A DNA stretch of 59,379 nucleotides, filler included. It is 3 parts of 3 records of this genome, joined end to end, with 100 filler letters (N's around TTAATTAATTAA, not from the genome) between each part and the next. Parts side by side here need not be neighbours in the genome. Positions count along the whole stretch, not along the records: positions 23,916 to 50,729 come from SRR20825006_290; 2 more parts are not named here. The stretch is one strand, 5' to 3'. This document shows, piece after piece, positions 15,472 through 56,853 of the stretch. The translations under genes and the position numbers were made by a program. Positions within the stretch are counted from its first letter, which is position 1; every line of letters starts with the position of its first letter. The notes under the pieces were generated by a model. That model had not been told where the DNA came from. It did not search any database and saw only the letters and a program-made list of their open reading frames with translations.

Positions 15472-15551
15472 TGAAAAGACCTTGAAGGAGAAAGATGTCC
15501 GATGAAAAGGCGGGGCGTGACAGGTCAACGACGAGCATGCCCGGTAAACAA

Positions 15552-23915: not shown

Positions 23916-24752
<837 letters not shown>

Positions 24753-33301: not shown

Positions 33302-33425
33302 AATAGCGGGCAGGGATGCCCGCAGTGCCGCCTTTCGCGATAGCGTATTTCCCCTTGATCATAATGCCCACCCCCGGTTGCGCCGGGGGCTTTGGCGTTT
33401 GTAACGGTTTGTTATAGACTCAACC

Positions 33426-33466
33426 AATAATAACGATGGCAACTACCGCTCCACCAATAACAACAA
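33426..33466 (+). promoter_or_regulatory. Two A-rich AAnAAnAA motifs (Hfq/Crc-type) in the leader of the second Tat-GMC pair
   Basis: CCAATAATAAC and CCAATAACAACAA, 40-80 nt upstream of ATG 33507. Confidence 0.5.
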
Positions 33467-33506
33467 GGGCCTGAAAGAAAACAGGCCTGCCCAGGAGAGG
33501 GTCTCA

Positions 33507-34103
33507 ATGAAGAAGAATAACCGTGCGCCGCTGCCCGGCTTTCTGGGTGGCCTGGAGCCACTGAGCCGCCGTGGGTTCCTGCGTACCAGTGTGCTGGCGG
33601 GTGCCGCCTTCACCTCCGGCTGTTCCAGTCTGTTCGGCCGCCGTGAGGCACCGGAAACCCTCGAATATCACAGCCTCAATGACGACGAAGTCGAAGTGAT
33701 CACCCGCCTGACCGAGGTGATGATCCCCGCTGATCGTTATGGGTTGCCCTCCAGTACCGATGTCGTACCCACCATAAAAAACGTGGATGCCATGGCCCAG
33801 CGAATGCCGCCGCAGACCCGCGAATTGCTGGGACTGGGGATTTGGGTGTTCAACAACCGGCCCATGGTCAGTTTCAAATTCAGCCGCTTTACCGGTTTGC
33901 CCGATGACAAGGCGTTGGCTTATGTGGATGCCATGCAGGAAGGCTCGTTCTTTGAGCGCGGGCTGATGACCACCCTGAAAGCCTTGGTGGCATTGAACTA
34001 CTGGCGTGACGAGCGTACTTGGCCAGGGCTGGAATATCATGGGCCGGTGACGGAGTTGTGGGGTGTACGACGATTGGGGAATGCCCCGTTACCACGGGCG
34101 TAA
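33507..34103 (+). CDS. Tat lipoprotein small subunit (gluconate 2-dehydrogenase subunit 3-like), paralog of 31098
   Basis: SRRGFL Tat motif, lipobox FTSG/C; shares YW..TW..GPV..W..LGNAPLP with 31098..31739. Confidence 0.78.
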   Translation: MKKNNRAPLPGFLGGLEPLSRRGFLRTSVLAGAAFTSGCSSLFGRREAPETLEYHSLNDDEVEVITRLTEVMIPADRYGLPSSTDVVPTIKNVDAMAQRMPPQTRELLGLGIWVFNNRPMVSFKFSRFTGLPDDKALAYVDAMQEGSFFERGLMTTLKALVALNYWRDERTWPGLEYHGPVTELWGVRRLGNAPLPRA

Positions 34104-34118
34104 GGGCGGAGAATAATA

Positions 34119-35717
34119 ATGGCGTTTGTACGAGTAGCCCGGGACGGGGTTCCTGTCACCCAGGCAAAAGACGTGGCACTGGATGCCAGCCTGGGTAAGC
34201 GATTCACACTGAAAACCGATGTGGTGGTGGTGGGCTCCGGAGCCGCCGGTGCCATGGTGGCCTATGAAATGGCCAAGGCCGGTCGGGATGTGCTGGTGCT
34301 GGAATCCGGGCGGTACTATCCCAGCTCGGCCTTTACCGAGCACCTTGGCGATACCATGACCAAGATTTATCAGGATCAGGTAGGCCAGGTGAATACCACT
34401 GCAGATATCATTTTTGTGCAGGGCGCCTGCGTGGGGGGATCCACGGTGATTGGTGCCTGCGTGATGGAAGAGCCGGGCGATGATGTGCTCGATGGTTGGG
34501 CTGCCAAGTACGGGCTGGATAATTTGTCTGCGGAAAAGTTTCGCCCTTATCTGGATACCGTGGCCGACCAGCTACAGATTCACATCAACGAAGCCCACGA
34601 AATCAATGCCTGTGCCCACAAGGTGATTCAGGGCTGCGAGAAAATGCAGTTCTCCTGGAAGCCTGCCCAGCGCAATGTGAAGCAGTGCGCGCTCACAGGG
34701 CATTGCCTGGCAGGGTGCCCGTCGGACCGGAAGATGAGTTCCCTGGTGACCCATCTACCCTGGGCGGCCGCGCATGGCGCACGGATTTTCTCGGATACGG
34801 AAGTGGTAAAAGTGCGCACCCGCAACGGCCGGGCTAGCGGGGTGGAAGCCCGGGTGACTGACCCGGATAGCGGCGCCCATGTGGCAGATATGCAGGTGGA
34901 TGCGGATTTGGTGGTGTTGGCGGCGGGGGCCATTCACAGCCCGCTGATCATGCAGCGCAGTGACATTGCAGATCGCAGCGGGCAACTGGGTCGTAACTTG
35001 TCCATCCAGCCGTTCACCCAGGTGATGGGGAAATTCAAGGAGCCGCTTTACGGCTTCCGTGGTGCCTTGGTCGGGGTGCAGGTGGATGAGTTTACCCGCA
35101 CGGACGGCTACACCATTTTCTCGGGACTGGCGGAGCCGGAGTCCCTCATGGCGCAAGGCGATATGAAGGCCGGTAAGGCGCATATCGATTTCATGAAGGA
35201 CTACAAGTACTACGCCGGGGTGAACGCTTTCAGCACCGATCTGGGCCGGGGGTATGTGCAGTGGGATGGCGACGCCTATACCGGCGGCAAGACCATTCAC
35301 TGGAACCCCAACCGGGAAGAATTTGAGAACATGAAGGCATCGGCGGCGCTGGCCGCACGGATCTTCTTTTCCGGTGGCGCCGAGAAAGTGTTCATGCCGA
35401 CCTTCCAGAGTCTGGAAGTGGACTCTGTATTCAGCCTGGATGAAAAACTGGCGCAAGTGGATTATGGCATCAAGGGTATGTACACCTTTCGCTCCAACAG
35501 TTTCAGTCCCCACGGTACATGCCGCATGGGCGCTGACAGCTATACATCCGTGGTGGCGCCCAATGGTGAGGTCCATGGGACTGCGGGGCTGTTCGTGGCG
35601 GATGCCAGCCTGATTCCCGAGCCCATGAGCGCGCCACCCCAGTGGACGGTGCAGGCGCTGGCCAAGTATGTCAGTGACCAGATCAATGCCAAGGCGAGCA
35701 GCTACTTCATTGGTTGA
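34119..35717 (+). CDS. GMC family FAD oxidoreductase (copy 2)
   Basis: VVVVGSGAAG, GACVGGSTVIG, CALTGHCLAGC, AAGAIHSP, GTCRMG and ADASLIP. Confidence 0.9.
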   Translation: MAFVRVARDGVPVTQAKDVALDASLGKRFTLKTDVVVVGSGAAGAMVAYEMAKAGRDVLVLESGRYYPSSAFTEHLGDTMTKIYQDQVGQVNTTADIIFVQGACVGGSTVIGACVMEEPGDDVLDGWAAKYGLDNLSAEKFRPYLDTVADQLQIHINEAHEINACAHKVIQGCEKMQFSWKPAQRNVKQCALTGHCLAGCPSDRKMSSLVTHLPWAAAHGARIFSDTEVVKVRTRNGRASGVEARVTDPDSGAHVADMQVDADLVVLAAGAIHSPLIMQRSDIADRSGQLGRNLSIQPFTQVMGKFKEPLYGFRGALVGVQVDEFTRTDGYTIFSGLAEPESLMAQGDMKAGKAHIDFMKDYKYYAGVNAFSTDLGRGYVQWDGDAYTGGKTIHWNPNREEFENMKASAALAARIFFSGGAEKVFMPTFQSLEVDSVFSLDEKLAQVDYGIKGMYTFRSNSFSPHGTCRMGADSYTSVVAPNGEVHGTAGLFVADASLIPEPMSAPPQWTVQALAKYVSDQINAKASSYFIG

Positions 35718-35741
35718 TCGGGTCCCATCATGACGACTCAG

Positions 35742-35768
35742 AACGCGCCTTCGGGCGCGTTTTTTATT
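35742..35768 (+). terminator. Rho-independent terminator
   Basis: AACGCGCC-TTCG-GGCGCGTT followed by TTTTATT. Confidence 0.88.
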
Positions 35769-35875
35769 GATAAACAGATACACTTTTGGCGTGAAATCCG
35801 TGGGGATTGGCACCTCCGCCCATGGTCAGCTGTGCTAGCATAAAATCACATTCCAAATTTCGATGGAGAGACACC

Positions 35876-37033
35876 ATGGTGGGGTTTGAATTTGCCACCA
35901 CGCACCGAGTGTTGGTGGAAGCGGGGGCCGCAACCCGTTTGCCTGAACTGTGCCAGCAGCTGGGCGCCAGCCGGGTCATGCTGGTCACCGATCCCGGTAT
36001 TCGCAGCACGCCCTTGCTGGGGCCAGTGGAAGAGAGTTTCCGCAGCGCCAATATGCCCCTGGTGATTTTCGATCAGGTCAGTGCGGACCCTGCCGATTCG
36101 GTGGTGCTGGACGCCGCCGGGCAGGCCAAGGATGCTGGCGCGGATCTGGTGATTGGTTTTGGCGGTGGCTCATCCATGGATGTGGCCAAGCTGGTTGCCT
36201 TGCTGTCGCACCCCAAGGCCAGTCAGCAGTTGTCCGATATTTACGGCGTTGGCCTGGCAACGGGGCCGCGACTGCCATTGGTGCAGGTGCCGACTACGGC
36301 GGGTACAGGCTCTGAGGTGACGCCGGTGGCAATCGTGACCACCGGTGCGACCACCAAGGCGGGTGTGGTCGCGCCGTCGTTGTTGCCGGACCTGGCTGTG
36401 CTGGACGCCGAGCTGACCTTGGGGTTGCCGCCTCATGTTACGGCCGCCACTGGCATAGATGCCATGGTGCATGCCATCGAGGCCTACACCAGTGCCCACA
36501 AGAAAAATCCTTATTCCGACATGCTGGCCCGTGAAGCGCTGCGCCTGTTGGCGGGCAATCTGGCTACGGCAGTGAAGGAGGGCAGCAATCTGCTTGCCCG
36601 GGAAGCTTGCCTGCTGGGTGCAATGATGGCGGGGCAAGCCTTTGCCAATGCCCCGGTAGCGGCGGTACACGCGCTGGCTTACCCTCTGGGAGGGCATTTT
36701 CACATCCCCCATGGCTTGAGCAATTCTTTGGTTTTGCCGGAAGTGTTGCGTTTCAATTTGCCCAAGGCAGCGCCGCTCTATGCTGAACTGGCGCCGATTC
36801 TCAGTGACCGTCCCTTTGCTGACCATGAAGATGGCGCCGGCGTGCTGATCGCTGCGCTGGAGTCGCTGATCCGTGAGGTGGGCCTGCCGGTACGCCTGCG
36901 TGATGCCGGGGTCACCGAAGACAGCCTGGAAACGCTGGCCGCGGATGCCATGCTGCAGCAACGGCTGCTGGTGAATAACCCCCGGGAAGTAACGGAGGCG
37001 GATGCCCTGAATATTTACAAGGCAGTTTATTAA
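35876..37033 (+). CDS. Iron-containing alcohol dehydrogenase
   Basis: GGGSSMDVAK, PTTAGTGSE, GIDAMVHAIE, HALAY..HIPHG and NNPR; GGAGAG RBS. Confidence 0.93.
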   Translation: MVGFEFATTHRVLVEAGAATRLPELCQQLGASRVMLVTDPGIRSTPLLGPVEESFRSANMPLVIFDQVSADPADSVVLDAAGQAKDAGADLVIGFGGGSSMDVAKLVALLSHPKASQQLSDIYGVGLATGPRLPLVQVPTTAGTGSEVTPVAIVTTGATTKAGVVAPSLLPDLAVLDAELTLGLPPHVTAATGIDAMVHAIEAYTSAHKKNPYSDMLAREALRLLAGNLATAVKEGSNLLAREACLLGAMMAGQAFANAPVAAVHALAYPLGGHFHIPHGLSNSLVLPEVLRFNLPKAAPLYAELAPILSDRPFADHEDGAGVLIAALESLIREVGLPVRLRDAGVTEDSLETLAADAMLQQRLLVNNPREVTEADALNIYKAVY

Positions 37034-37077
37034 TTAAAGAGACGCGACACGCGCTGTTACTTTCAGGGAATACACGA

Positions 37078-37512
37078 ATGAGCGATAAACCAGGCCGTCC
37101 TCAGCGTGAGGAATACGGTTACCTCTGCCCGGTGGATAGCCGCTGGAGCGATAATGATATCTACGGCCACATCAACAATGTGGTGTATTACAGCTATTTT
37201 GATTCCACCATCAACCGGTACCTGGTCGACGAAGGCGGGTTGGATATCCATGATGGCGAGCACATCGCCTATGTGGTCAGCTCCGGTTGTGACTATCTGG
37301 AAGCGGCAGCCTATCCGGAATCTTTGGTGGTGGGGATGAAGGTGGACAAGCTGGGGAACAGCTCTGTGCGCTATGGCTTGGCTCTATTCGGCAGTGAAGG
37401 CCCGGCCAAGGCCACCGGTTTTGTGGTGCATGTGTTCGTGAATCGAACAACAGGGCGACCTGTAGCCATTCCTGATGCCCTGCGTGAAGCGTTAGCACGA
37501 CTGGCGCAGTAG
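37078..37512 (+). CDS. Acyl-CoA thioesterase (4HBT/YbgC hotdog family)
   Basis: RWSDNDIYGHINNVVYYSYFD and LGNSSVRY. Confidence 0.9.
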   Translation: MSDKPGRPQREEYGYLCPVDSRWSDNDIYGHINNVVYYSYFDSTINRYLVDEGGLDIHDGEHIAYVVSSGCDYLEAAAYPESLVVGMKVDKLGNSSVRYGLALFGSEGPAKATGFVVHVFVNRTTGRPVAIPDALREALARLAQ

Positions 37513-37658
37513 AGAGTTATCGTTGTCAGAAAAGGGTGATACTCAGTAACAGCTTGCTCATCATGTAGCTACATCACAGGCTCAGGGCCTCAGGTCGACT
37601 ACGGGTTGCCCGCCAGCAGTGGCGGAAGGGTAGCAAATCCTTACGCCGGAGAGACACA

Positions 37659-37688
37659 AGGTCGAATTAGGCGTAGCCGTAAGCCGAC
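37659..37688 (+). repeat. Degenerate REP-like palindrome
   Basis: AGGTCGAATTAGGCGTAGCCGTAAGCCGAC resembles the GTCGGATTA..TAATCCGAC REP-type stem. Confidence 0.4.
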
Positions 37689-37712
37689 AACACGCTACAC
37701 GGTTAATGATAG

Positions 37713-37754
37713 AAAAAAGGCGGAAATGGAGGTGAGTCCATTTCCGCCTTTTTC
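37713..37754. terminator. Bidirectional Rho-independent terminator
   Basis: AAAAAAGGCGGAAATGGA-GGTGAG-TCCATTTCCGCCTTTTT between convergent genes. Confidence 0.88.
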
Positions 37755-37760
37755 ATGTTG

Positions 37761-37788
37761 CCTGCGGCGTGTTGCGTGCCGCGTCCTG
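37761..37788 (+). repeat. CGTGNNG heptamer tandem repeat
   Basis: CCTGCGG CGTGTTG CGTGCCG CGTCCTG. Confidence 0.45.
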
Positions 37789-37791
37789 GTT

Positions 37792-38781
37792 TTAGTTAGG
37801 GAAAAAATTCATCTTGAAATCGCCTTTCCAGGTTTCCACGTCCATGGCGCCAAAGTTCATCTTTCGGGCCACCAGCAGGATCCGCCGTTCTAGCTTGTCA
37901 TCACCCAGCTGACTGGACTTGATCTTCACGTCCAGCACGTCGCCACTGGGGGCGATAGTGAGCGCAAGTACCACGGTTCCTTGCAGGGCAGGGTTGCTGC
38001 GCATGGCCCGCTGGTACTGACTGTAGAATTTGCCTTTGTAACGGTCAAATACTCGGGAGATTTGCTCTTGGCTGCGACGACTCTTGCCATCGCTACCTTT
38101 GCGCGAGGTGCTGGCCGCTTCACCGGCCTGGGCGATCTTGCTGTCCACCTGCTTGCCACCACTGCCCACGGTGCCGGAAGACAGTGTGCCACCGCCTCCG
38201 CCGCCACTTGAGGCACGGGCTACAGCAACGCCACCGGAGCCGCTGCCGGCACGGGTGCCGATCAGGTCACGTTCGGCCTTGGCGGTGGTGCTGCCACCGG
38301 TTCGCAGGTCATTGCCGGAGTTCACAAGCGGACCGATATCATCCAGCCCGGCCAGGGAATCGCCCAGGTCTTCTTCCAGTTTGGCCTGTGCTTTTTCACG
38401 GGCCTGCTGGCGCTCCTGAGGTTCCGGTACCGGTTTGGGCTTGGGTTCGGGTTTCGGCTCAGGCTTGGGCTCCGGTTTAGGCTCCTCTTTTTTGGGTTCT
38501 TCCTTTTTCTCTTCCGGCTCGGGTTCCGGTTCGGGCTCCGGAGGTGGTGGTTCTTTTTTCTTCTCCATGACCAGTTGCGCAAGGCGCTCCGGAATTTTCT
38601 GCTGCTCACGGCGATCCGGTTTCTCGATAGTCACCGCGTTCACCATGATCATGATCAGCAAAGAGAGAATCAGTAGAACGATCACGATGCCGTATAGGCG
38701 TCGGTCTTCCCCCTCCTGTTTGTCCCAAGGCAGCGAGCCGTCGATCAGTATGCGCAGCTTGTTATTGTTTTTCTGCGTCAT
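37792..38781 (-). CDS. TonB-like energy transducer with AgmX/PglI-type C-terminal domain (GltG-like)
   Basis: Single N-terminal TM, EP/KP-rich spacer, Gly/Ser-rich linker and C-terminal RS..I..V..YQRAMRSNPALQG.V....I.PSG.V. Confidence 0.82.
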   Translation of the reverse strand: MTQKNNNKLRILIDGSLPWDKQEGEDRRLYGIVIVLLILSLLIMIMVNAVTIEKPDRREQQKIPERLAQLVMEKKKEPPPPEPEPEPEPEEKKEEPKKEEPKPEPKPEPKPEPKPKPVPEPQERQQAREKAQAKLEEDLGDSLAGLDDIGPLVNSGNDLRTGGSTTAKAERDLIGTRAGSGSGGVAVARASSGGGGGGTLSSGTVGSGGKQVDSKIAQAGEAASTSRKGSDGKSRRSQEQISRVFDRYKGKFYSQYQRAMRSNPALQGTVVLALTIAPSGDVLDVKIKSSQLGDDKLERRILLVARKMNFGAMDVETWKGDFKMNFFPN

Positions 38782-39278
38782 TCTTCCTCCTCCTCTGCGA
38801 CTTTCAGCACAGCGAAGGCGACTTGTGTGTACGGGGTTTCCATACAGCTACGCATCAACTTCTTGATCACCGAGTAGGGCACCGAGCGGTCGGCAAGAAT
38901 CATTATTTCCCGGTCTTCGTCCGGGCTGATCGCCAGCCCCTGCGAGGCACGGAAATTCAATTCTTCCACCAGCGCCGCCACGGTACGCTCTTCCTGATTT
39001 CTGACTGTTTCGGTATCAGCGATTTTTTGCCCTTCAACAATGATGTCCGTAGGGCTTACCTGAATGGTCAGCACCTCGGTGGGCAGCTCCTGGGCAATGG
39101 ATTCCGGTAACTGGATATCCTGATTGTCCGGCAGCTTCGCCGCATTGTTGTTATTCACCAGCAGAAAGATCAGCAGGATGGTGAAAATGTCCATCAGGGA
39201 TGTCAGGTTCAGTGTGGCAACAGCCTTGTGCTTGCCGTGATGTCGGGCCATGCGGCGAGCACGGGATGACTTCTTCAT
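38778..39278 (-). CDS. ExbD/TolR family protein (AglS-like)
   Basis: LNLTSLMDIFTILLIFLL TM with conserved Asp; ILADRSVPY. Confidence 0.88.
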   Translation of the reverse strand: MKKSSRARRMARHHGKHKAVATLNLTSLMDIFTILLIFLLVNNNNAAKLPDNQDIQLPESIAQELPTEVLTIQVSPTDIIVEGQKIADTETVRNQEERTVAALVEELNFRASQGLAISPDEDREIMILADRSVPYSVIKKLMRSCMETPYTQVAFAVLKVAEEEEE

Positions 39279-39805
39279 GCATCACCTCCCTGGCCGGCGC
39301 TTTGATCCTTGGGGGCTGAACCGATGCTGATGCTCGGGAACAACTCTTTCTTGATGGTTTGGCCGTTGACCTCGCTGTTGTACAGACGCACGGCGTCCAT
39401 AGTCTGGATCATCACCTCGTAGGGGGTGTCATCCTCGCACAGCAGGGTAATAGCGGTTTCCTGAGGAAACTTTTCTTTTACCTTCACAAGGTAATCGTGC
39501 AGGCCGGTGCTATTGGGCTTCTCGCCATTGCTTTTCACAATCTTGAGTACCGCACTGGTATTACGGTCGACCACTTCATAGCGGTTGCCATAAATCAGTA
39601 CTTCAAGCACCAGCTTGTCTTTTTCGTCGTCTTCCGAGGGGGTGCTGCTGTCATTCACCGCGGGCAGGTCGAGTTGCAGGATGGATACCTGCGCGAAGAC
39701 CGCGTTGATCAGCAGAAAAGGAATCAGCACTACCATCAAATTCAAAAAGGCAGTGATGTTCAGTTCCACCTCGGTGTCGTGCGAACGTCGTCTGCGAAAA
39801 CGCAT
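39275..39805 (-). CDS. ExbD/TolR family protein (AglQ-like) with Asn at the channel position
   Basis: ELNITAFLNLMVVLIPFLL TM; TPYEVMIQTMDAVR. Confidence 0.85.
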   Translation of the reverse strand: MRFRRRRSHDTEVELNITAFLNLMVVLIPFLLINAVFAQVSILQLDLPAVNDSSTPSEDDEKDKLVLEVLIYGNRYEVVDRNTSAVLKIVKSNGEKPNSTGLHDYLVKVKEKFPQETAITLLCEDDTPYEVMIQTMDAVRLYNSEVNGQTIKKELFPSISIGSAPKDQSAGQGGDA

Positions 39806-39846
39806 ACCAGATCCTTACACCAGGTTAGCGAAAACAAGAAATCGGC

Positions 39847-40539
39847 TTATTGGCCGTCGTTCTTGCGCTCTTGCTGGGCAGAAACCTGGCGGAATACGTT
39901 AACGAATTTCACCGAGGCCATTTCCATGCTGTCGACCAGTTTGCCGGTCATGGAATTGATAAAGGCGAAAGCCAACAACATGGGGATCGCAGCGATCAGG
40001 CCGAACGCGGTGGTGTTCATGGCCACAGAGATAGAGGCAGACAGCAGGTCAGCTTTCTGGGCCGGGTCTGCACTGGCTACGGCGGTAAAGGCGCTGATCA
40101 GGCCGAGAATAGTACCGAGCAGACCGAGCAGGGTGGCGATGTTCGCAAAGGTGGCGATGTAAGGCGTGCGGGTTTCCAGGCGCGGAATGATTTCCATCAG
40201 GCCTTCTTCCATGGCCAGTTCGATATCATCGTGACGCTTGGCGGATTTGGCACGTTCCAGACCGTAGCCAATCACCTTGGCCATGCCGGTGTTGCTGTTG
40301 CTGACCACATCCAGAGCCTGACGGAACTGGCCCTTGGCAATCAGTGGGTAAACGTCTTTCCAGGTTTTCTGGTTTTTTGCTTTGGTGGCCTGGAGGTAGA
40401 TGATGCGTTCCAGAGACAGGGCCAGGCCCAGTGCCAACACAATCAGAATGGGGTACATGAAGAACCCGCCATCCTGAATAAATTTGATAGAGGTCTCAAT
40501 GACACCCAGGTTTTGGGCGGCAGCGGCGGTGGTGGGCAT
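39847..40539 (-). CDS. MotA/TolQ/ExbB proton channel family protein (AglR-like)
   Basis: GGFFMYPI, ATLLGLLGTILGLI and AMNTTAFGL. Confidence 0.92.
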   Translation of the reverse strand: MPTTAAAAQNLGVIETSIKFIQDGGFFMYPILIVLALGLALSLERIIYLQATKAKNQKTWKDVYPLIAKGQFRQALDVVSNSNTGMAKVIGYGLERAKSAKRHDDIELAMEEGLMEIIPRLETRTPYIATFANIATLLGLLGTILGLISAFTAVASADPAQKADLLSASISVAMNTTAFGLIAAIPMLLAFAFINSMTGKLVDSMEMASVKFVNVFRQVSAQQERKNDGQ

Positions 40540-40688
40540 GAACTTCTCCTGCGATGTTTCTGTTTAGCGTTATTGTTGGGCGCCGCGACGTTTCGGCTGG
40601 TGTGAACGTGCTGGCGCCTTTCCCCAAAGTGTTCGTTTTTATCAGAAAAAAAGCGTGCACGCACGCTAATGCTATTTACGGTGTTGGT

Positions 40689-40976
40689 TTATTCCAGAAA
40701 CAGGCCGTCATTGTCCGGTTCCTGGGTCAGTAGCTGGTGATACTCGATTTCACGCATGAGCACTTCCTGGTCCAGTGGCTCCAGCACCCGATTGAGCAAT
40801 GACGAGGTGGGATCCTTCTTTTCCAGCTTTACTTCACGGTCTTTCCAGGGAACCACGTTCAGCACCGTGGGGGCTTCCTGGGTCCCGATCACGTTGGTCG
40901 ATGGTTCGCTCGAGTCATCGGCGGCATGGCTGGCAGCAGCCAACAGCAGTGCAGCAAGAGTCAACAGGCTTCGCAT
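40689..40976 (-). CDS. Small secreted protein, GltF/CglF-like
   Basis: Sec signal ending ASHA; VIGTQEAPTVLNVVPWK motif; position between the TPR lipoprotein and motor genes. Confidence 0.65.
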   Translation of the reverse strand: MRSLLTLAALLLAAASHAADDSSEPSTNVIGTQEAPTVLNVVPWKDREVKLEKKDPTSSLLNRVLEPLDQEVLMREIEYHQLLTQEPDNDGLFLE

Positions 40977-41740
40977 CAGTTTATCTCCCCGGGGTTAAGG
41001 GTCGAGCCGTTTTCGGCCACTGGTTGGCTGGGCTGTTCCGGTGCACGACGCTCCAGATCGACAATCCAGTTGGCCACGTTTTCGTCCGGCAGTTTCTGAA
41101 GATTCTGGTAGGCACGGAAATGATTGAGCGCCAGGTTCATGTCTTGCAGGTACAGCTCGCCGAGTACGGCCAGGTTGAAATGGGCGCGGGCATACTTGGG
41201 ATCAAGCACCAGGGCGCGTTCATAATGAATACGAGCGTTATCGAATTCGCCTTGCTCGCGCAGGGCCAGGCCCAGCCCATTGTGGGCATAGGGGTTGGCA
41301 TCATTGATGGCCAGGGACTGCTCGAAGGCCGCACGGGCCTTGTCGTAATCCTCCAGTTCCATCTGTATCAAGCCGATGTTGAGCTGCGGGCCGGACAGTT
41401 GCGGATAACGTTCGGCCAGGGACTGGAACATGACCAGTGCCTGTTCGTTGTTGCCTGCCATGCGAGTTTGCAGGGCACGGGCGTACTCGCCCATGGCCTG
41501 TTGCGCGACTTTTTCGACTTTCGGGTCGTGGGGCACGGGTGGAATATGCACGGCATCACTGTCGGCGGCAGCGGCGCCACTTTTTTGCTGTTCATATTTG
41601 CTGGTGTTGCCTTCGGCAGTGCCGTCCAGTCCGCCCCCCTGGTTAATGGCACAGCCCGCGAAGAGCAGTGCCAGCAAGAGGGCCGCGCCGCGTGTTACGT
41701 GCTGCGTGCAGCGTGTGGCGTTAATAAATAATGTCGACAT
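40976..41740 (-). CDS. TPR lipoprotein (GltE/AglT-like)
   Basis: Lipobox LFAG/C; TPRs (AHNGLGLALREQGEFDNA, AHFNLAVL..LY). ATG at 41740 has a GAGAG RBS. Confidence 0.82.
   Translation of the reverse strand: MSTLFINATRCTQHVTRGAALLLALLFAGCAINQGGGLDGTAEGNTSKYEQQKSGAAAADSDAVHIPPVPHDPKVEKVAQQAMGEYARALQTRMAGNNEQALVMFQSLAERYPQLSGPQLNIGLIQMELEDYDKARAAFEQSLAINDANPYAHNGLGLALREQGEFDNARIHYERALVLDPKYARAHFNLAVLGELYLQDMNLALNHFRAYQNLQKLPDENVANWIVDLERRAPEQPSQPVAENGSTLNPGEIN
41691..41722 (+). repeat. CGTGNNR heptamer tandem repeat inside the signal-peptide n-region
   Basis: CGTGTTA CGTGCTG CGTGCAG CGTGTGG CGTT; encodes NATRCTQHVTR on the minus strand. Confidence 0.55.
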
Positions 41741-44666
41741 AGCTCTCAACCTGTTCAAACTTCGCATAACGGCCGGGAATCAGCTCTGCTAACGCGGTAA
41801 AGCTCTTTTTTACCCACTGGTCATAGATGTCATCGGTGACCAGATTGGCATTGGCGATAAGAATATCGATGGCCTGGTCCTCATAGGGGAGGGCCTTGTC
41901 TTCAAGCAGCATGGTGTACTCTTCAAGCTCCAGTTCATCCATGCCGTTGGGGCGTTCCGACTTGATCAGGTCCTTGGCCAGCACGCGATACATCTCACCA
42001 ATTTTGTAGTTGGCTGCGGTGGCGTATTCAGCGACGCCAATATGGGCAACAGCCTGGTAATCGGCCAGTGCTGTTTTCATCACCGTGGTCTTGGCGGCCA
42101 GCGAGGTTTTCAGCGGCTGCTCAAGCTTGATGCGATTGAACTCCTGGAAGTTCGGTTCGGCCAGGGTGAAGCTGGCATAAGCGGCCAGCCAGGCCACGCG
42201 ATCATTGGCATCATTGCCGGCATCACGATAACTGGTGACGAGCTGTTGCAGCCAGTAGGTTTCCCGCCCGCTGTTGCCGGTTTTGCGGTTCAGTTCTACC
42301 AGCCTGAACTGGGCTTCAGAGCGGAAGTCATAAGGCTGCGGCCATTCCTGCAGGTACTGCTCGTAGAGCGCAATGGACGCCTGCGGCTTCTCGGCGCGGT
42401 CCTGCATTTCTGCGGCGCGCCACATGGCCTGGCGGGCCAGTTCATCGTTCTCGCCTTTATGGTTGGCGGCGATCAGGGTCAGCTCACCGGCAGCGGCGGT
42501 ATAGTTGCCTTGCTGTTCGTAGGCCACCGCCAGTTTGTCCGGGATGGTATCGGCCAGCGGATCGTTCGGGTAACGCTGACGGAAGGCTTCCAGGACCGGA
42601 ATGGCATCGGCACTGCGCTGCTGCTGGATGAACAGGGTGGCCGCGTCAAACTCCGCATTCTTGCGCACGGAGGCTTCCGGCACCGCCTCGCCAACCCGCA
42701 GGAAGGTGGCGGCTGCCACATCCAGGTTGCCCTGATCACGCTGCTGTTCGCCCTGACGATAGATGCTGAGTGCCAGTTTTTCTCGGTACTCGGCGCGTTG
42801 CTCAGGCTCCACTTCCAGCAGCAAAAGTTTGTTGTAGGCCATCTCGGCGACCTTGAAGCGGCCCAGATCGAATTCACCGTTAGCAATGGTGGCCCAGCCG
42901 TAGCGGAGCATTGCCGGTTCGGGGGTCGGTTCGCGGGTGACCAGAATGCCGGCGGTTTTTACTGCCCCTTCCACGTCGCCCAGTGCCAGCTGATCTTCGG
43001 CGGTATCGTGTAGCACGTTGGTAGCCTGGGGGTGTTGCGGGAAGTTTTGTCCAAACTTCTGGGCGCTGGCGATTTTCTGTTGGCGCCACTGGGTTGTCTG
43101 TTCTGGCTCCAGCTCGCCATCGAGAATTTTCTGGTAGGCAACCAGACCTGAGAAGGCTGCGTCGCCACCGGTGGTGTGTTCGGGGTAGCCATAGGCGGTG
43201 CGTTCGAACTGCGCAATCGCAGCCGGGTAATCGTTGGCGGCGAACAGCACATCGGCGTAGCGGTGGTTCACGTCACCCTGATTGGCGCTGACGGGGGGCG
43301 TGTCCAGGTATTCCTTGTACCAGCGTGCTGGCGCCTGGTAGTCCGCTGGCTTGCCGGATTTCTGGGCGAGTACATGGTGGTATTCGGCCAGATCAAGAAT
43401 GTGCCCCTTGAGCAGATCCACGTACTGCTGGCGGATATCCGGGTGGCGATTCCAGTACTCGCTGTTCACCCCATAGTGGTCGATGAATTTTTCTTTAGCC
43501 GGTAGTACCAGGGTCGGGAAGCCCCCTTTCTGGTAAGACTCGATCTGCAGGGTGGAAAACTCCGGCGCCAGGCGAGAATCCGGGTACACCTGCACGAACA
43601 TATCGTAGGTTTCAGCCGCATCGCGGAAGCGTTCCTGGTTCAGGTAGACGTCGCCGAGGTTGCGGTAAATGTCCGGTTCGTAATCCCGGTTGCCGTTGCG
43701 GGCAAACCAGGCTTTTACGGACTTGGCACCGTTCAGGTTACTGAAGCTGAGGCTGACGACCCGCTGGGTATCACTGAACAGTTTACTTTCCATGCTGGTG
43801 TTATCGGCCAGCACGGCCTGGCCGTTCAGGTTGTCCAGCAGGGTAAAGAAGCTGTCTTGGGCGCGTTCGTATTCACCCAGCTTGTAGTAACTCCAGCCGT
43901 GCTTGTACAACGCCTGGTTATAGAATTCGTTGCGCTCGCCCCGTTCGATGACGTCAGCGTAGGCTTTCTCTGCGTATTCGTAGTCGCCTTCGGAGAACAG
44001 CATTTCGCCGCGACGGAACTGGGATTCCAGTGCCCATTCGCTGTTGGGGTATTGCTCGACCAGGGAATCCAGGCTGCTACGGGCCTTGTCCAGATCCCCA
44101 TCCATGGCGTAGGCCTTGGAGAGCAGATAGTAGGCTTCGGCACGTTCGTTGGCGTCGCTGGTGCTGTTTAGCAGCTCCTGATAGAGCTGGATCGCCGTGC
44201 TGTAGTCCACATCCTCATCGGCGAGCGTGGGGGACATGGTGCCTGCCAGGTCTAGCAGGGCCAGCTTCCGTTCGGTGTCGTCGGTGGTCTGCACCTGGGA
44301 CATGGTGTTGTCGTACACCAACTTGTCGACTTTTTGCTCCAGCTGCTCGTCTTCTTGCTGGGCAATCTGCATGTCCTGCTCGGTGGCAGAGGCCAGTGCC
44401 AGGTCGGCCATGCGCCGCAGGGTTTTGGCCCGGCGTTGCGGGTCGTCGAACAGTTCAGCCGCCTGGCGGTAGCTGTTCAGGGCATCCTGAGTGGAGGCGC
44501 TTTCCAGTTGCTGCTCTTCAATGACAATGTCTGTGCTTTCCAGGTCCGCCAGGGTGGTTCCCCCGAAACGGGCCTGTTGCTCCAGGGTGCCACTTGGCGG
44601 TGCGGATGCGCAGCCCCCCAAGGCCACCATCGCTGCAGCCAGACTGTGCAGGCGAAATCGTTTCAC
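41721..44666 (-). CDS. Large TPR lipoprotein (GltD/AgmU-like)
   Basis: 981 aa, lipobox LGG/C and many TPR-like helical repeats (EAYYLLSKAY, ESQFRRGEMLF, ALYKHGWSYYK). Confidence 0.85.
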   Translation of the reverse strand: MKRFRLHSLAAAMVALGGCASAPPSGTLEQQARFGGTTLADLESTDIVIEEQQLESASTQDALNSYRQAAELFDDPQRRAKTLRRMADLALASATEQDMQIAQQEDEQLEQKVDKLVYDNTMSQVQTTDDTERKLALLDLAGTMSPTLADEDVDYSTAIQLYQELLNSTSDANERAEAYYLLSKAYAMDGDLDKARSSLDSLVEQYPNSEWALESQFRRGEMLFSEGDYEYAEKAYADVIERGERNEFYNQALYKHGWSYYKLGEYERAQDSFFTLLDNLNGQAVLADNTSMESKLFSDTQRVVSLSFSNLNGAKSVKAWFARNGNRDYEPDIYRNLGDVYLNQERFRDAAETYDMFVQVYPDSRLAPEFSTLQIESYQKGGFPTLVLPAKEKFIDHYGVNSEYWNRHPDIRQQYVDLLKGHILDLAEYHHVLAQKSGKPADYQAPARWYKEYLDTPPVSANQGDVNHRYADVLFAANDYPAAIAQFERTAYGYPEHTTGGDAAFSGLVAYQKILDGELEPEQTTQWRQQKIASAQKFGQNFPQHPQATNVLHDTAEDQLALGDVEGAVKTAGILVTREPTPEPAMLRYGWATIANGEFDLGRFKVAEMAYNKLLLLEVEPEQRAEYREKLALSIYRQGEQQRDQGNLDVAAATFLRVGEAVPEASVRKNAEFDAATLFIQQQRSADAIPVLEAFRQRYPNDPLADTIPDKLAVAYEQQGNYTAAAGELTLIAANHKGENDELARQAMWRAAEMQDRAEKPQASIALYEQYLQEWPQPYDFRSEAQFRLVELNRKTGNSGRETYWLQQLVTSYRDAGNDANDRVAWLAAYASFTLAEPNFQEFNRIKLEQPLKTSLAAKTTVMKTALADYQAVAHIGVAEYATAANYKIGEMYRVLAKDLIKSERPNGMDELELEEYTMLLEDKALPYEDQAIDILIANANLVTDDIYDQWVKKSFTALAELIPGRYAKFEQVESYVDIIY

Positions 44667-46579
44667 GATCCTTTCCTCTGATTTTTCTCACCGGAGACAG
44701 ACGAATCCTGCAGGCGGGCAATGGCCAGATGTGCCTCGGCCAACTGGTCAGCCAGCTTTTGCTGGTTGGCGTGGAGCAGGGCGAGGGCGTCGGCCTGCAT
44801 GTTTTGCTCCAGGGCCAGCAAGGTGTCTTCTGTCAGATGCTTTATTTGTTTTATTTTCTGGTCTTGTGCGGCGAGGCGTTGGCCTACGTCGTCACGGGTA
44901 CGCAGGGTGGCGTCCCGGATCTGTTGGCTTATCGCCGCAATACGTTGTGCCAGTATCTGGCTTTCTTCGCGTAATTGGGTAGCAGCTTGCACTTGTTGTT
45001 CGCGTTGTTCCACCGACTGGTGGGCAATATCCCAAAGTAACAGGCCGCGAACCCGGCGCAGGCGAATGGCGTTGTTGTGGTCGGAACCGGGGATACGGCC
45101 GAATTGATGGGCGAGGGCGTCGACTTTCTTCCACATGATGGCCTGTTCAGCATTGGCCACATCGGCAGGCTTCACCAGGTCCACATAGTTGGGGATGCGG
45201 TTGGCCAGTTTGTCGCTGGCCTGGCTGAGCGCCTCCTGGCGGCTCATCAGGCCGGTGACCTGCCCGCGAACATGGGGCAGGTTTCGGCTCAGCATCTCAC
45301 GCTGTTGCTGGTAGCTTTGCTGCAAGGCGGGCAGTGATTCCTGCCAATGCTCCACCATGCTCTTGATCTGCTGGATCTGGCGGTAGTGCTCAAAGCGTTG
45401 GGCAAAGTGGTTACTGGAGAACAGCTTGTACAAATACGAGAGTTCGCCACCTCTGGCCATGTCATCGGTGTTGGCGGGCAGCAGGCCGGCGGCATTTTCG
45501 TCTTCAGGGAGCAGCGCTTCGGACCAGCCGGGTTTGGCGATGTTGTCGATGGCGCGCTGAATGTCCTTGAGGCCCTCACGGTATTGCGTGGCCGCATATT
45601 GATAGCCCGACAGGGCCTGGGGTAAGCCGCCGAGTTCTTCGTAGGCGCGTGGGGCGAGCATCAGCGCTTCCTGTACGGACGGGTGGCTGCTGTTGCGGCG
45701 CACGGCTTCCAGCCACAGGGGCAGGGCGCGTTTCACGTCGCCGGCACGGTAGTTCGCCAGGCCCAGAGCGAGCAGGGCATCTTCGGAGAAAGGACCGTCG
45801 CTGCGTACCTGGCGCAGATCAGCGCGGGCACTTTCCAGGTTGCCGTCTTTCAGTTCTGTCAGGCCTGACGCCAAGGCCGCCCGGTCACGCAGAGCCAGCG
45901 CCTGATCGCTGCTGCCCCCTGCGGACAGCAAGGATTTAAGCAGCTCAAGGCCCTGATCCTGATGGCCGGCCCGAATCAGCGCTACGCCCATGTTGTAGCT
46001 GGCGTAACGGCCTTCATCGGTATTCAGGGGTACGGAATGGAGGTAGTCCAGGGCACCGGTAAAGTCGCCCTCGGCCATGAAGATATTGGCCAGCATCAGG
46101 CGGCGGCGAGCTTCGTCAACGGCCTCCAGCCCTTTCATGTTTTCGCCATCGAGAATCATGGCCGCGTCGGTGTAGTTGCCTTCGCGGTAATGCAAGGCGG
46201 CCTTGTGCAGCCAGGTCTGGGCGCGGGTGCGGCTGAGGATGTCCTTGGCCAGCAGCCGGTTGAAGATGGTTTCGGCTTTGTCGGGCAGGCCGTAGGTGAC
46301 GTAGAGGTCCCCGAGAACCAGTTCGGCGTAGTCGGTATCTTCGTTGAATAGCTGTTGCTGTTGGTTCACCAGCAGCAGGTTGATGGCATCGAAGTTGGCT
46401 TCGCGATAGTAGTCATACATGACTTCACCGAACGCCAGGTAGCGGTGTTCTTCTGCGCCGAGAATCTGCGGGCCGGTGTCTAGGTCATCAAAAAACTCGA
46501 CTTTTGCCGCGTGGGCAGGCGATAGATTGACCGCAAGCAGCGAATATAACAGCCACCGTTTCATCCGGGGTCGTGTCAT
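44663..46579 (-). CDS. Secreted TPR + coiled-coil protein (GltC-like)
   Basis: Sec signal ending AHA, TPRs and a C-terminal coiled coil; ATGA overlap with the upstream gene. Confidence 0.8.
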   Translation of the reverse strand: MTRPRMKRWLLYSLLAVNLSPAHAAKVEFFDDLDTGPQILGAEEHRYLAFGEVMYDYYREANFDAINLLLVNQQQQLFNEDTDYAELVLGDLYVTYGLPDKAETIFNRLLAKDILSRTRAQTWLHKAALHYREGNYTDAAMILDGENMKGLEAVDEARRRLMLANIFMAEGDFTGALDYLHSVPLNTDEGRYASYNMGVALIRAGHQDQGLELLKSLLSAGGSSDQALALRDRAALASGLTELKDGNLESARADLRQVRSDGPFSEDALLALGLANYRAGDVKRALPLWLEAVRRNSSHPSVQEALMLAPRAYEELGGLPQALSGYQYAATQYREGLKDIQRAIDNIAKPGWSEALLPEDENAAGLLPANTDDMARGGELSYLYKLFSSNHFAQRFEHYRQIQQIKSMVEHWQESLPALQQSYQQQREMLSRNLPHVRGQVTGLMSRQEALSQASDKLANRIPNYVDLVKPADVANAEQAIMWKKVDALAHQFGRIPGSDHNNAIRLRRVRGLLLWDIAHQSVEQREQQVQAATQLREESQILAQRIAAISQQIRDATLRTRDDVGQRLAAQDQKIKQIKHLTEDTLLALEQNMQADALALLHANQQKLADQLAEAHLAIARLQDSSVSGEKNQRKGS

Positions 46580-47094
46580 TGCTGATTCCATTCACGGAAT
46601 TCGAATTTGTGCTGCTGGCTATTCAGGTCATCGACCACCTGCATCTCCACCATTTTGCGGCCGGGGCCCTTGGTGAAGTTGTAGCTGGTGGTTTTCTGGT
46701 AGTCCTTGCCGAGGGGGTCATAGCCGGTGATGGTGGCTTCCATGACATGGCGGCCGCTGGTCAGGTTACCGGTATACAAACGCTGAATACCGCCCTTGGT
46801 GAGGGCTTCGAATTCCTGGTCGGAATAGAAGTGGTAGCCAACATGGTCACCGTCGATGGTCAGGTTGATGTCCACCAGGCGGATTGGGGTGCCCACGTCT
46901 ACAGAGACAAAGATGCTGGTCTGGGGGCTGGCGTAGAGTAATTCCTGCTCCAGCAGGGTGAGGTCCCGGTTCAGGTTGAGGGCTTCGCTCTTGAGTTGGC
47001 GAATCTGCTCGGACAGGCCATCGTCGTCAGCCGCACCGGCAATGGAACACAGGCTCACTAACACGGCGCCGCAGAAGGGCAAAAATGCTTTCAT
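46576..47094 (-). CDS. Secreted hypothetical protein, first gene of the TPR/motor operon
   Basis: Sec signal ending AGA, short coiled coil (LNRDLTLLEQELL) and a beta-rich domain GGIQRLYTGNL..G.H. Confidence 0.78.
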   Translation of the reverse strand: MKAFLPFCGAVLVSLCSIAGAADDDGLSEQIRQLKSEALNLNRDLTLLEQELLYASPQTSIFVSVDVGTPIRLVDINLTIDGDHVGYHFYSDQEFEALTKGGIQRLYTGNLTSGRHVMEATITGYDPLGKDYQKTTSYNFTKGPGRKMVEMQVVDDLNSQQHKFEFREWNQQ

Positions 47095-47246
47095 GGGGTG
47101 GCGATCGCTTCTTTTGTTGTTATGGGCCGGAATCCCGGCGTGCTTTATAGCGTTAGTTGTAATCAGAAGAACGGCTTAAATCAAGGGTAACCATCGGTCA
47201 TGATTGGCCCTTAGCACCACCGGCGGAGGCCTCTATAGTCAAGTTT

Positions 47247-48125
47247 ATGGATAGTAATGATGCGAATTTGCCACTAGTGCTGCGACGGGCACTGTCCGCA
47301 AGGGGCTGGAACCAGCAGATGCAGTATCGGTCCGGTGCGGGTGGGGACACTGCCAATAGCGGTTTGCTGACGCATTCGGGGGGCCGTTGTTTTGTGAAAA
47401 TGCACTCCAATGCCGCATTGCTGGAAGCGGAAGAAGCCGGGTTGCGGGCCTTGGAGCCGTGGCTACGGGTGCCGCGGGTAGAGGGCCGGTACGCCGATGG
47501 GGCGGGCGGGGTGCTGTTTCTGGAAGCCCTGGCGCTGGAGCCTTTGGGGCAGGCTGGGTGGCGGGCTGCCGGGCAAGCCCTGGCCAGGCTTCACAGCGGG
47601 GCCACAAACACGGTGTATGGAGGTGTGGCGGACAACTTTATTGGTGGCATGGCGCAGTACAACAGTGATGAAACCGAATGGCCCCGTTTTTTCGCCCGTC
47701 AGCGGCTGCAGCCACAGTTGCAATGGGCAAGGCAGAAGGGGTTGCCGGCATCGGCCGGCCGGGTTGTGCATCGGGTTATCGACCATCTGTCGAACTGGTT
47801 GCCGCGCAGGCCTGCCAGTGCGTTGTTGCACGGGGATCTGTGGATGGGGAATCTGGGCCAGATTGACGGCGCAGAGCCGGTGTTCTTCGATCCGGCCTGT
47901 TATTATGGCGACCCGCAGGTGGACCTGGCCATGCTGAACCTGTTCGGCCGACCGCCCGAGGTGTTCTACCATGGCTACCAGGGGCATTTGCCGACACCGG
48001 AGCAACGGGCGCGGTGGCCGGTGTATGACCTGTATCACTGGCTGAATCACTTCAACCTGTTTGGTCATCCCTATACTTCAGCCGTTACCAATACGGCCCG
48101 ATTGCTTTGCCGGGAGCTGGAATAG
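47247..48125 (+). CDS. Fructosamine kinase family protein
   Basis: FVK, E..GL, DNFIG..Q.N, LLHGDLW.GN, FDPA.YYG...DLAM and NHFNLFG. Confidence 0.9.
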   Translation: MDSNDANLPLVLRRALSARGWNQQMQYRSGAGGDTANSGLLTHSGGRCFVKMHSNAALLEAEEAGLRALEPWLRVPRVEGRYADGAGGVLFLEALALEPLGQAGWRAAGQALARLHSGATNTVYGGVADNFIGGMAQYNSDETEWPRFFARQRLQPQLQWARQKGLPASAGRVVHRVIDHLSNWLPRRPASALLHGDLWMGNLGQIDGAEPVFFDPACYYGDPQVDLAMLNLFGRPPEVFYHGYQGHLPTPEQRARWPVYDLYHWLNHFNLFGHPYTSAVTNTARLLCRELE

Positions 48126-55930: not shown

Positions 55931-56021
55931 CGAGTGGTCCACAAAGGATCGCGCGTTACATCGCCCACGATGTGTGGGGAAGAAGGGCAAGGCACAAGGT
56001 TAAACCTCGCGCTACAGGGCA

Positions 56022-56810: not shown

Positions 56811-56853
56811 GGGGCAGACTCCCGGATAAGGTATGGAATGAAAGGTGTGGCGT

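Follow-up and report, generated by a model that had tools for sequence, protein, structure and literature searches.

A nine-gene operon of Alcanivorax that probably represents an extended form of the Agl-Glt/Nfs core complex

The window analyzed here is a stretch of DNA of 59,379 nucleotides (nt), along which all positions are counted. Its right-hand, Alcanivorax-like part (from 23916) hosts an operon of nine co-directional open reading frames (ORFs), named P1 to P9, for a putative proton-driven envelope machine. We regard it as probable that this operon is the Alcanivorax orthologue of the stand-alone Agl-Glt/Nfs "core complex", extended to nine conserved genes. Because gene order and protein sizes agree with those reported by Luciano et al. 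2011 (PMC3169522; publications identified by a PMC number are cited here from excerpts of their text) and an Alcanivorax strain appears in the trees of that study, the system has to be considered as known since 2011 and functionally uncharacterized, and no new kind of system is described here. The P3 protein shares 82% identity with proteins named from Alcanivorax species and 96-97% with a protein of an Alcanivorax metagenome-assembled genome.

Organization of the operon

ORF listing and translation place the nine genes on the minus strand from 47094 to 37792. This confirmed the nine-gene co-directional run that an earlier note on this DNA had described, with all its coordinates and, a putative coiled coil in the C-terminal half of P2 aside, its protein types, among them the tetratricopeptide repeat (TPR) proteins. 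Signal peptides and lipoboxes were judged by eye on the translations, without a predictor; TM denotes transmembrane.

46576-47094, minus strand: P1, 172 aa, signal peptide, no Pfam match
44663-46591, minus strand: P2, 642 aa, signal peptide, TPR
41721-44666, minus strand: P3, 981 aa, lipobox LGGC, TPR
40976-41767, minus strand: P4, 263 aa, lipobox FAGC, TPR
40689-40976, minus strand: P5, 95 aa, signal peptide, no Pfam match
40540-40688, minus strand: P5/P6 spacer, 149 nt, separating the Glt-like P1-P5 block from the P6-P9 motor block
39847-40539, minus strand: P6, 230 aa, MotA_ExbB (PF01618), 93.2 bits
39275-39805, minus strand: P7, 176 aa, ExbD (PF02472), 50.9 bits
38778-39278, minus strand: P8, 166 aa, ExbD (PF02472), 57.1 bits
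37792-38781, minus strand: P9, 329 aa, TM helix, Pro/Glu/Lys-rich stretch, TonB-type C-terminal domain
37707-37754, minus strand: intrinsic terminator after P9, hairpin 37713-37754 followed by a U-tract

The genes mostly overlap, as had been proposed: with the longest ORFs taken, six of the eight junctions overlap by 1-47 nt, leaving spacers of 149 nt between P5 and P6 and of 41 nt between P6 and P7. The true start of P4 is probably the ATG at 41740 and not position 41767. The same layout recurs across the related loci introduced below, where junctions overlap inside each block and the sole conserved spacers are P5/P6 (median 82 nt; at least 40 nt in 39 of 53 loci) and, shorter, P6/P7. The spacing shows two blocks, P1-P5 and P6-P9, whose genes are presumably coupled in translation.

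A strong terminator had also been predicted for the end of the operon. The hairpin after P9 folds with -30.1 kcal/mol (z = -6.9), none of 200 shuffled sequences folding equally well, and with an A-run and a T-run on its flanks it is possibly bidirectional. A candidate internal terminator in the P5/P6 spacer (hairpin and T-run at 40652-40667) was rejected, reaching -7.7 kcal/mol at z = 0.41 with 126 of 200 shuffles equal. The promoter scan yielded no minus-strand promoter-like site upstream of P1. An Rfam search over 36500-48000 returned nothing above threshold; a Hammerhead_II match at 45234-45289 on the minus strand, inside the P2 coding sequence, stayed at 31.7 bits against a gathering score of 37 (E = 0.0031) and is probably due to chance.

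Conservation of the nine-gene unit

Starting from an alignment of 23 P3 sequences, 80 loci were collected from species-representative genomes, covering many families of Gammaproteobacteria and some Burkholderiales, and gene presence was scored by iterated hidden Markov model searches of the locus ORFs. The exact order P1 to P9 was found in 53 of the 80 loci, most of the others being interrupted by contig ends. Since the same nine-gene order recurs in so many loci of other species, the operon is more than a chance arrangement.

Counting those loci with room for the respective gene on the contig, P1 is present in 66 of 68 (room upstream), P2 in 67 of 70, P4 in 71 of 76, P5 in 75 of 76, P6 in 69 of 73, P7 in 68 of 71, P8 in 67 of 70, and P9 in 63 of 66, hence each of P1, P2, and P4-P9 in at least 93%. 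The retention of P1 and P5 at this level argues for both being integral subunits. Two of the three loci missing a separate P2 carry it fused to P3. Among the variants, L004 is rearranged with P1-P2 following P9 instead of preceding P3, and in L020 neither P1 nor P2 was found within 9.6 kb upstream or 6.3 kb downstream. On a broader scale, a conserved P3 peptide motif matched at least 600 stretches in species-representative genomes, with at least 589 confirmed P3 relatives, and the P3 family comprises 1039 clusters (50% identity) at E <= 1e-30.

Correspondence with the published core complex

Luciano et al. 2011 (PMC3169522) defined the core complex as gltC, gltD, gltE, and gltG together with aglR, aglQ, and aglS, clustered in one region of the genomes of gammaproteobacteria, one betaproteobacterium, Geobacter, and Fibrobacter. 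The cluster also holds an additional gene for which Myxococcales and Bdellovibrionales have no homologue. The complex was judged unlikely to power motility and its function was left unassigned; later papers retained this status and suggested basal transport or secretion (PMC3858216; bioRxiv 10.1101/2020.07.22.216333). The statement of the earlier note that similar gammaproteobacterial cores had been catalogued without an assigned function is therefore correct according to the excerpts of PMC3169522. In Marinobacter aquaeolei, the proteins of Maqu_1807-1814 measure 324, 166, 170, 235, [gap], 189, 952, and 648 aa and were mapped to MXAN gltG, aglS, aglQ, aglR, [gap], gltE, gltD, and gltC (PMC3169522). 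The gap in the locus tags falls at the position of P5 (Maqu_1811, and likewise Sde_2958 and Mpe_A1227), and proteins of Alcanivorax sp. DG881 appear in four trees of the same paper (PMC3169522).

The Alcanivorax operon shares with this complex, as represented by Maqu_1807-1814 and by Sde_2954-2960 of Saccharophagus, the gene order, the single co-directional cluster, and a non-gliding host. The sizes of P2, P3, P4, P6, P7, P8, and P9 (642, 981, 263, 230, 176, 166, and 329 aa) compare with 648, 952, 189, 235, 170, 166, and 324 aa in Marinobacter. Clustered co-directional genes, the additional gene (P5), a GltG-type transducer, and a TolQ-like P6 with two ExbD-like subunits are all found here. 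Nothing essential differs, the gene tables in the excerpts of PMC3169522 listing seven genes plus one extra at the P5 position, without P1. The Agl-Glt-like identity proposed in the earlier note is thus supported by order and sizes matching the core of PMC3169522 as well as by the C-terminal domain of P9 (see below).

The operon resembles the Myxococcus xanthus Agl-Glt machine in its TolQR-type motor with two different ExbD-like subunits, in its TonB-like transducer, which is of the GltG type and ends in an AgmX/PglI tail, and in three TPR proteins whose sizes and order are those of GltC, GltD, and GltE. It differs from that gliding machine by the absence of the GltA/B/H/K barrels, GltI, GltJ, the CglB adhesin, FHA domains, and the MglA/AglZ link; neither Group A genes (gltA, B, F, H, I, J, K) nor barrels or FHA domains, as expected of a complete gliding motor, were found within the operon. 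The Myxococcus Agl-Nfs spore-coat machinery, which AglRQS drives via the GltG paralogue NfsG, derives from the same core (PMC3858216); its Nfs-specific outer-membrane components and sporulation link are not present here. Domain searches of the operon and of the large ORFs scanned at 23916-59379 returned no TonB-dependent receptor, TolB, Pal, or outer-membrane barrel domain; this agrees with the earlier note, which had pointed to the absence of a receptor, of TolB and Pal, and of a barrel gene in the operon.

Motor subunits P6, P7, and P8

P6 is closer to TolQ than to ExbB or MotA. On the NCBIfam models it scores 67.3 bits for TolQ (cutoff 221) against 35-36 bits for ExbB (cutoffs 135-206), and its closest solved chains are TolQ (E = 3.7e-11) followed by ExbB (4.8e-6). 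A kinship to TolQ has likewise been reported for AglR. Judged by its sequence, P6 is an AglR-like putative proton channel subunit of the MotA/TolQ/ExbB family.

P7 and P8 are distinct ExbD/TolR paralogues, both scoring low on the NCBIfam equivalogs (TolR 25-35 bits, cutoff 127; ExbD 19-24 bits, cutoffs 123-216). They differ at the functionally central position of the TM helix. N22 of P7 aligns with the Asp of the PLLDVLL motif in the E. coli TolR chain, which we take to be Asp23, and the P7 family carries Asn at this position in 61, Asp in 7, and Ser in 2 of 70 sequences. P8 keeps the TM Asp (D30), as do 69 of its 70 family members, the remaining one showing a gap. As P7 mostly carries Asn and P8 Asp, the stator plug would pair two different subunits, of which one offers a protonatable Asp. 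In Myxococcus, the aglQ D28N exchange abolishes proton conductance (PMC3858216), the counterpart of AglQ here being either P7 or P8, and an AlphaFold model of the Myxococcus motor has an AglQ/AglS hetero-pair inserted in an AglR pentamer (PMC11761067).

The transducer P9

P9 consists of approximately 30 cytoplasmic residues, one TM helix, a Pro/Glu/Lys-rich spacer, a conserved middle segment, and a C-terminal domain. No FHA domain was matched in it, in line with the earlier note, which had described a GltG-like protein lacking a cytoplasmic FHA domain. The family alignment conserves an N-terminal LPW motif, the proline-rich spacer, the middle segment (AREKA...LRD, then an SGG motif), and the tail. 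The Pfam TonB_C match of this tail is weak; the tail passes the AgmX/PglI C-terminal model NF033768 with 58.2 bits (cutoff 40) and the generic TonB C-terminal model TIGR01352 with 33.6 bits (cutoff 27.1). On the GltG equivalog, P9 reaches 48.9 bits against a cutoff of 650, residues 34-307 corresponding to model positions 344-625 of 650; it stays below this cutoff because the latter needs the FHA half. Scores for TolA (29.7 bits, cutoff 59.45) and for the TonB equivalogs (18-26 bits, cutoffs 265-377) are low as well.

When P9 was searched against longer proteins, four matches were obtained at E <= 0.001, three of them bearing an FHA domain. Two of these, P0390 and P0391, match with database-wide E values of 7.7e-11 and 2.9e-9; the GltG model gives them 137 and 161 bits, and the tail model 114-115 bits. 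The third, P0393 (E = 3.1e-4), reaches 49 and 78 bits on these two models, respectively. The fourth, a protein from an Oscillospiraceae metagenome-assembled genome, has no FHA domain.

TPR proteins P2, P3, and P4

The three large proteins of the first block are dominated by TPR families in Pfam: P2 with TPR_16 and TPR_14 matches over residues 170-340, P3 with TPR_6 (95.7 bits) and further TPR families, and P4 with TPR matches. By position and size, P2 would be the periplasmic GltC-like protein and P3 the GltD-like TPR lipoprotein, and by position P4 would be the GltE-like TPR lipoprotein. A lipobox-like motif is present in 46 of 83 P3 family ORFs, fragments counted in, and in 68 of 73 P4 homologues.

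P3 is probably the central scaffold, and natural gene fusions give hints in this direction. P2 and P3 are fused in L027 (1508 aa) and L028 (1536 aa), and P3 and P4 in L065 (1483 aa); P2 aligns to residues 39-504 of a fused form of 1508 aa with E = 5e-25. Furthermore, several of the 150 listed cluster representatives of the P3 family are approximately 1380-1550 aa long with the P3-like part being C-terminal. Such fusions hint at physical contacts of P2 with P3 and of P3 with P4. They fit the AlphaFold model of the Myxococcus complex by Cambillau and Mignot 2025 (PMC11761067), in which GltD forms a pillar binding GltC, GltE, and GltG.

Two further matches of P3 deserve a cautious reading. Its score on the YbgF/CpoB TPR model (98.1 bits, cutoff 90.1) is no proof of orthology, as it is summed over 5-7 repeats of the TPR_6 type in a protein of 981 aa compared with a model of 119 positions. 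The match to the type IX secretion lipoprotein PorW/SprE is weak (50.8 bits, cutoff 250).

Small secreted proteins P1 and P5

Neither P1 nor P5 matched any family in Pfam or NCBIfam, and a search of the ESM Atlas with both returned solely their own unnamed or mis-named clusters. The AlphaFold2 model of P1 comprises a long helix (residues 26-51) and a beta-sandwich (58-171) with a mean pLDDT of 79 and values >90 over the sandwich. A fold search of the PDB gave weak, generic transthyretin- or Ig-like sandwiches at best (E >= 2.7e-3, TM scores 0.3-0.54) and therefore no functional lead. Public records and ESM Atlas clusters carry the family under the automatic name "AraC family transcriptional regulator". 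This is a misnomer, since signal peptide and predicted fold contradict it, and looks like a propagated mis-annotation.

P5 occupies the position of the published additional gene, between the gltE-like and the aglR-like gene. Its family shows an extended consensus, GNxExPKVLYIVPWK, followed by two helices, with P36, P43, and W44 being invariant in an alignment of 30 sequences. The AlphaFold2 model (mean pLDDT 68) is confident in the helices 56-65 and 70-84 alone. The earlier note had named GltF among the parts of the Myxococcus machine; an equivalence of the small secreted protein to it was not supported: in the excerpts of PMC3169522, gltF is among the genes restricted to Myxococcales and Bdellovibrionales, where the additional core gene has no homologue. 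As GltF is largely disordered (Cambillau and Mignot 2025, PMC11761067), P5 recalls it in kind, and the position after the gltE-like gene is analogous, a likeness that does not imply homology. A complex prediction for P5 (residues 20-95) with the C-terminal domain of P9 (228-329), modeled on a GltF-like strand insertion and run without alignments, scored 0.00 against a mark of 0.34 and counts neither for nor against such an interaction.

Genomic neighborhood of the related operons

For the 80 loci, flanking ORFs were clustered, and representatives of 35 clusters out of the 40 most frequent were scanned against Pfam. A gene for the flavin transferase ApbE adjoins the operon, upstream or downstream, in 36 loci, and a TlpA-like thioredoxin gene lies directly upstream of P1 in 34 loci, 29 of these thioredoxins carrying a WCxxC-type motif. 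DUF3570 is a neighbor in 10 loci. Of the 80 loci, 59 have one or more of the three in the same direction within 6 kb, usually no more than a few hundred nt away; among the 47 loci whose operon is complete and whose flanks measure at least 2.5 kb on each side, 42 do. Eight arrangements were distinguished, e.g., thioredoxin-[operon]-ApbE in L018 (an order found in Kangiellaceae, Pleioneaceae, and Permianibacter), ApbE-thioredoxin-[operon] in L053, and thioredoxin-DUF3570-[operon] in L037. Mapped on a P3 tree computed with FastTree, the arrangement classes require a minimum of 12 changes and absence requires 5, distributed across both main clades. Related genomes inherit their neighborhoods, and these counts hence overstate independence. 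None of the three genes adjoins the operon in the window or the operons of the Alcanivoracaceae loci L001-L003.

ApbE, DUF3570, and thioredoxin are known as a flavinylation-associated cluster without assigned function (Méheust et al. 2021, PMC8238504). Across the nine families of the operon, no [S/T]G[A/G/S][S/T] flavinylation motif is conserved; [S/T]GA[S/T] occurs in 3 of the 10 neighboring DUF3570 proteins.

Type II secretion genes (gspJ, K, L, M, and N) directly precede the operon in Cellvibrionales and relatives, reading in the same direction and mostly with ApbE in between. This arrangement comprises 11-12 loci (L010, L019, L023, L030, L034, L036, L041, L048, L054, L063, and L069) and is limited to one clade of the P3 tree.

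Two larger modules were observed upstream of other operons. One, within 6 kb, encodes a 930-1070-aa beta-propeller/HZS_alpha protein, a 420-aa SH3 protein, and a 313-aa OMP_b-brl barrel, followed by the thioredoxin (L029, L032, L037, L050, L051, L056, L064, L075, and L078; DUF3570 is present too except in L032 and L056). The barrel could be the outer-membrane partner in species carrying this module. The second consists of a 1265-aa Laminin_G_3 protein and families without a Pfam match (approximately 460, 540-590, and 330-610 aa) and is found in L007, L016, L024, L025, L039, L045, L047, L049, L057, L060, L062, L065, and L067.

Composition of the window and genes flanking the operon

The operon-bearing part of the window is separated from the left part (1-23815) by an artificial join at 23816-23915, composed of an N run, the six-frame stop linker TTAATTAATTAA (23860-23871), and a second N run. 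GC skew flips its sign at this join. Outside the operon, the window carries the following features.

37-1497, plus strand, and 14296-15528, minus strand: DUF1559 (SBP_bac_10) proteins with prepilin N-methylation motifs, left part
21193-23685, plus strand: YidC with PDZ domain, left part
23949-24752: enolase gene, truncated at its 5' end because the artificial join lies just before it
31736-37512, plus strand: two GMC oxidoreductases, an iron-containing alcohol dehydrogenase, and a thioesterase, converging on the operon terminator
50874-58023, minus strand: separate envelope-looking set upstream of the operon, comprising a TPR and Peptidase_MA protein (537 aa), a DUF4175 protein (1168 aa), an ORF with an FAA-hydrolase domain, and a PEGA-domain protein (389 aa)

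DUF1559 and prepilin-type genes are typical of Planctomycetes rather than of Alcanivorax, and the left and right parts may stem from different organisms of one bin or sample. The genes converging on the terminator could serve the metabolism of alcohols or alkane-derived compounds in Alcanivorax. The opposite flank encodes a fructosamine kinase, a PdxB-like dehydrogenase, an NAD kinase-like gene, the TPR peptidase, DUF4175, and the PEGA proteins.

Discussion

Taken as an orthologue of the core complex, the operon suggests a working model, in which subunit stoichiometry, contacts, energy coupling, and task are what we infer from the gene products. P6 would form a TolQ/ExbB-type proton channel ring in the inner membrane, plugged by the ExbD-type hetero-pair of P7 and P8, of which P8 alone carries the protonatable Asp. 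Proton flow would be converted into conformational work and passed on to P9, a TonB-like protein anchored in the inner membrane with its proline-rich spacer spanning the periplasm. The middle segment of P9 and its AgmX/PglI-type domain would then dock to a TPR scaffold on the periplasmic side of the outer membrane, built from the lipoproteins P3 (GltD-like) and P4 (GltE-like), the periplasmic P2 (GltC-like), and the small secreted P1 and P5. By this docking, the proton-motive force would reach an outer-membrane-associated lipoprotein complex. The machine probably moves, positions, or releases a cargo encoded elsewhere.

Several observations weigh against this interpretation. All equivalog models applied (GltG, TolQ, TolR, TolA, ExbB, ExbD, and TonB) score far below their cutoffs. 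P4 reaches 38.6 bits on the NCBIfam GltE model (cutoff 225), which is below its score for PrsT (42.2 bits) and unspecific among TPR families, and P2 and P3 matched no Glt model in NCBIfam even at E <= 10. The presumed kinship of P2, P3, and P4 with GltC, GltD, and GltE beyond the TPR repeats rests on published trees. Neither the operon nor the large ORFs scanned at 23916-59379 yielded a gene for an outer-membrane partner or a cargo. In addition, our literature search, with subscription journals mostly outside its reach, found no experiments on any gammaproteobacterial core complex.

Most likely, the machine is not a gliding motor, and it is not a TonB system that energizes uptake through receptors either. 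A specialized TonB-ExbB-ExbD system, which would power receptors encoded elsewhere, e.g., for uptake of hydrophobic or polymeric substrates, might be assumed from the membership of P6, P7, and P8 in the ExbB and ExbD Pfam families, from the TonB-like proline-rich region of P9, and from its passing the TonB C-terminal model (33.6 vs 27.1 bits). TPR accessories are also known from the Vibrio-type TonB2 and TonB3 clusters with TtpB, TtpC, and TtpD (PMC10734418). We nevertheless consider this very improbable. The generic C-terminal model is the sole TonB-type model passed, the tail of P9 scoring higher for AgmX/PglI (58.2 vs 33.6 bits); the TonB, ExbB, and ExbD equivalogs stay far below their cutoffs; and the channel is nearer to TolQ (67 vs 35 bits for ExbB). 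TtpB and TtpC are missing, gene content and order differ, and a TonB-dependent receptor family was encountered neither among the 35 neighbor clusters scanned nor at 23916-59379. Moreover, Teredinibacter turnerae T7901, which has core-complex homologues in the trees of Luciano et al. (PMC3169522), no longer grows on low iron or on carboxymethyl cellulose after deletion of the four canonical tonB genes (PMC10734418). GltG-like proteins hence probably do not replace TonB, provided that the core-complex genes of this strain are intact and expressed. A paralogue of Tol-Pal, i.e., a proton-driven tether between inner membrane and lipoproteins serving envelope integrity, outer-membrane lipid balance, or constriction, is quite unlikely in our opinion, even though the likeness is closer. 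Both systems have a proton-driven TolQ-like channel, a TolR-like plug (P7 aligns with TolR), a periplasm-spanning transducer (with P9 matching TolA weakly, at 29.7 bits against a cutoff of 59.45), and a YbgF-type TPR component in P3 (98.1 vs 90.1 bits), and with P3 and P4 the output end would lie on outer-membrane lipoproteins as with Pal. The YbgF score is, however, a sum of many repeats that does not imply orthology, neither TolB nor Pal nor a TolQ, TolR, or TolA of equivalog rank was found in the operon, and two ExbD/TolR paralogues (one without the Asp), the AgmX/PglI-type tail, three large TPR proteins, and two small secreted proteins make up a nine-gene content unlike tolQRA-tolB-pal-cpoB.

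Regarding the task of the core complex, a basal secretion or surface-transport device carrying a polysaccharide, lipid, or protein to the outer membrane or along it is a possibility we tentatively entertain. It draws on the analogy with Agl-Nfs moving the spore-coat polymer and Agl-Glt exposing CglB, on Wartel et al. 2013, who call the core a possible "basal transport machinery" (PMC3858216), on the position directly after gspJ, K, L, M, and N in 11-12 Cellvibrionales loci, and on the weak PorW/SprE match of P3 (50.8 bits, cutoff 250). On the other hand, a channel, secretin, barrel, or cargo gene conserved with the operon was not encountered among the neighbor clusters scanned, and the type II secretion adjacency is confined to one clade. 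We regard it as rather unlikely that the machine works with an extracytoplasmic redox module (ApbE, TlpA-like thioredoxin, DUF3570) in the assembly, gating, or contact of an outer-membrane-associated redox protein, with the partner genes in Alcanivorax residing elsewhere in the genome or being lost. This would account for at least one of these genes standing beside 59 of 80 operons and 42 of the 47 with complete operon and full flanks, in eight arrangements requiring at least 12 changes on the P3 tree (absence 5, in both main clades), for the WCxxC-type motif in 29 of 34 thioredoxins, and for the association of the three families already known from flavinylation-associated clusters (PMC8238504). 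Against it stand the operon in the window and L001-L003 with all three genes missing next to them, the missing flavinylation motif in the nine families with [S/T]GA[S/T] in 3 of 10 DUF3570 proteins, and the inflation of the counts by shared descent of neighborhoods; the excerpts of the flavinylation paper (PMC8238504) make no mention of such a link. One and the same machine could accommodate both the transport and the redox proposal.

The gliding and spore-coat machines of Myxococcus presumably descend from the core complex, which is widespread, as illustrated by the number of confirmed P3 relatives and P3 clusters, and to which no function has been assigned outside Myxococcota. Our analysis adds a nine-gene unit rather than seven genes plus one, an asymmetric stator plug with a predicted single Asp, natural fusions of the TPR proteins, and the frequent neighborhood of ApbE, thioredoxin, and DUF3570. 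A more far-reaching idea, which we deem unlikely, is that the core machine is the force-generating partner of the thiol/flavin redox module flanking it in most gammaproteobacterial lineages. If so, a TonB/Tol-type motor would serve outer-membrane-associated redox chemistry instead of import, tethering, or motility, Alcanivorax would be a lineage in which the parts became separated or the redox part was lost, and the question for the task of the ancestral Glt core would get a concrete and testable answer. The Alcanivorax operon stands alone and would thereby offer a clean background for deletion phenotypes of this widespread type of machine.

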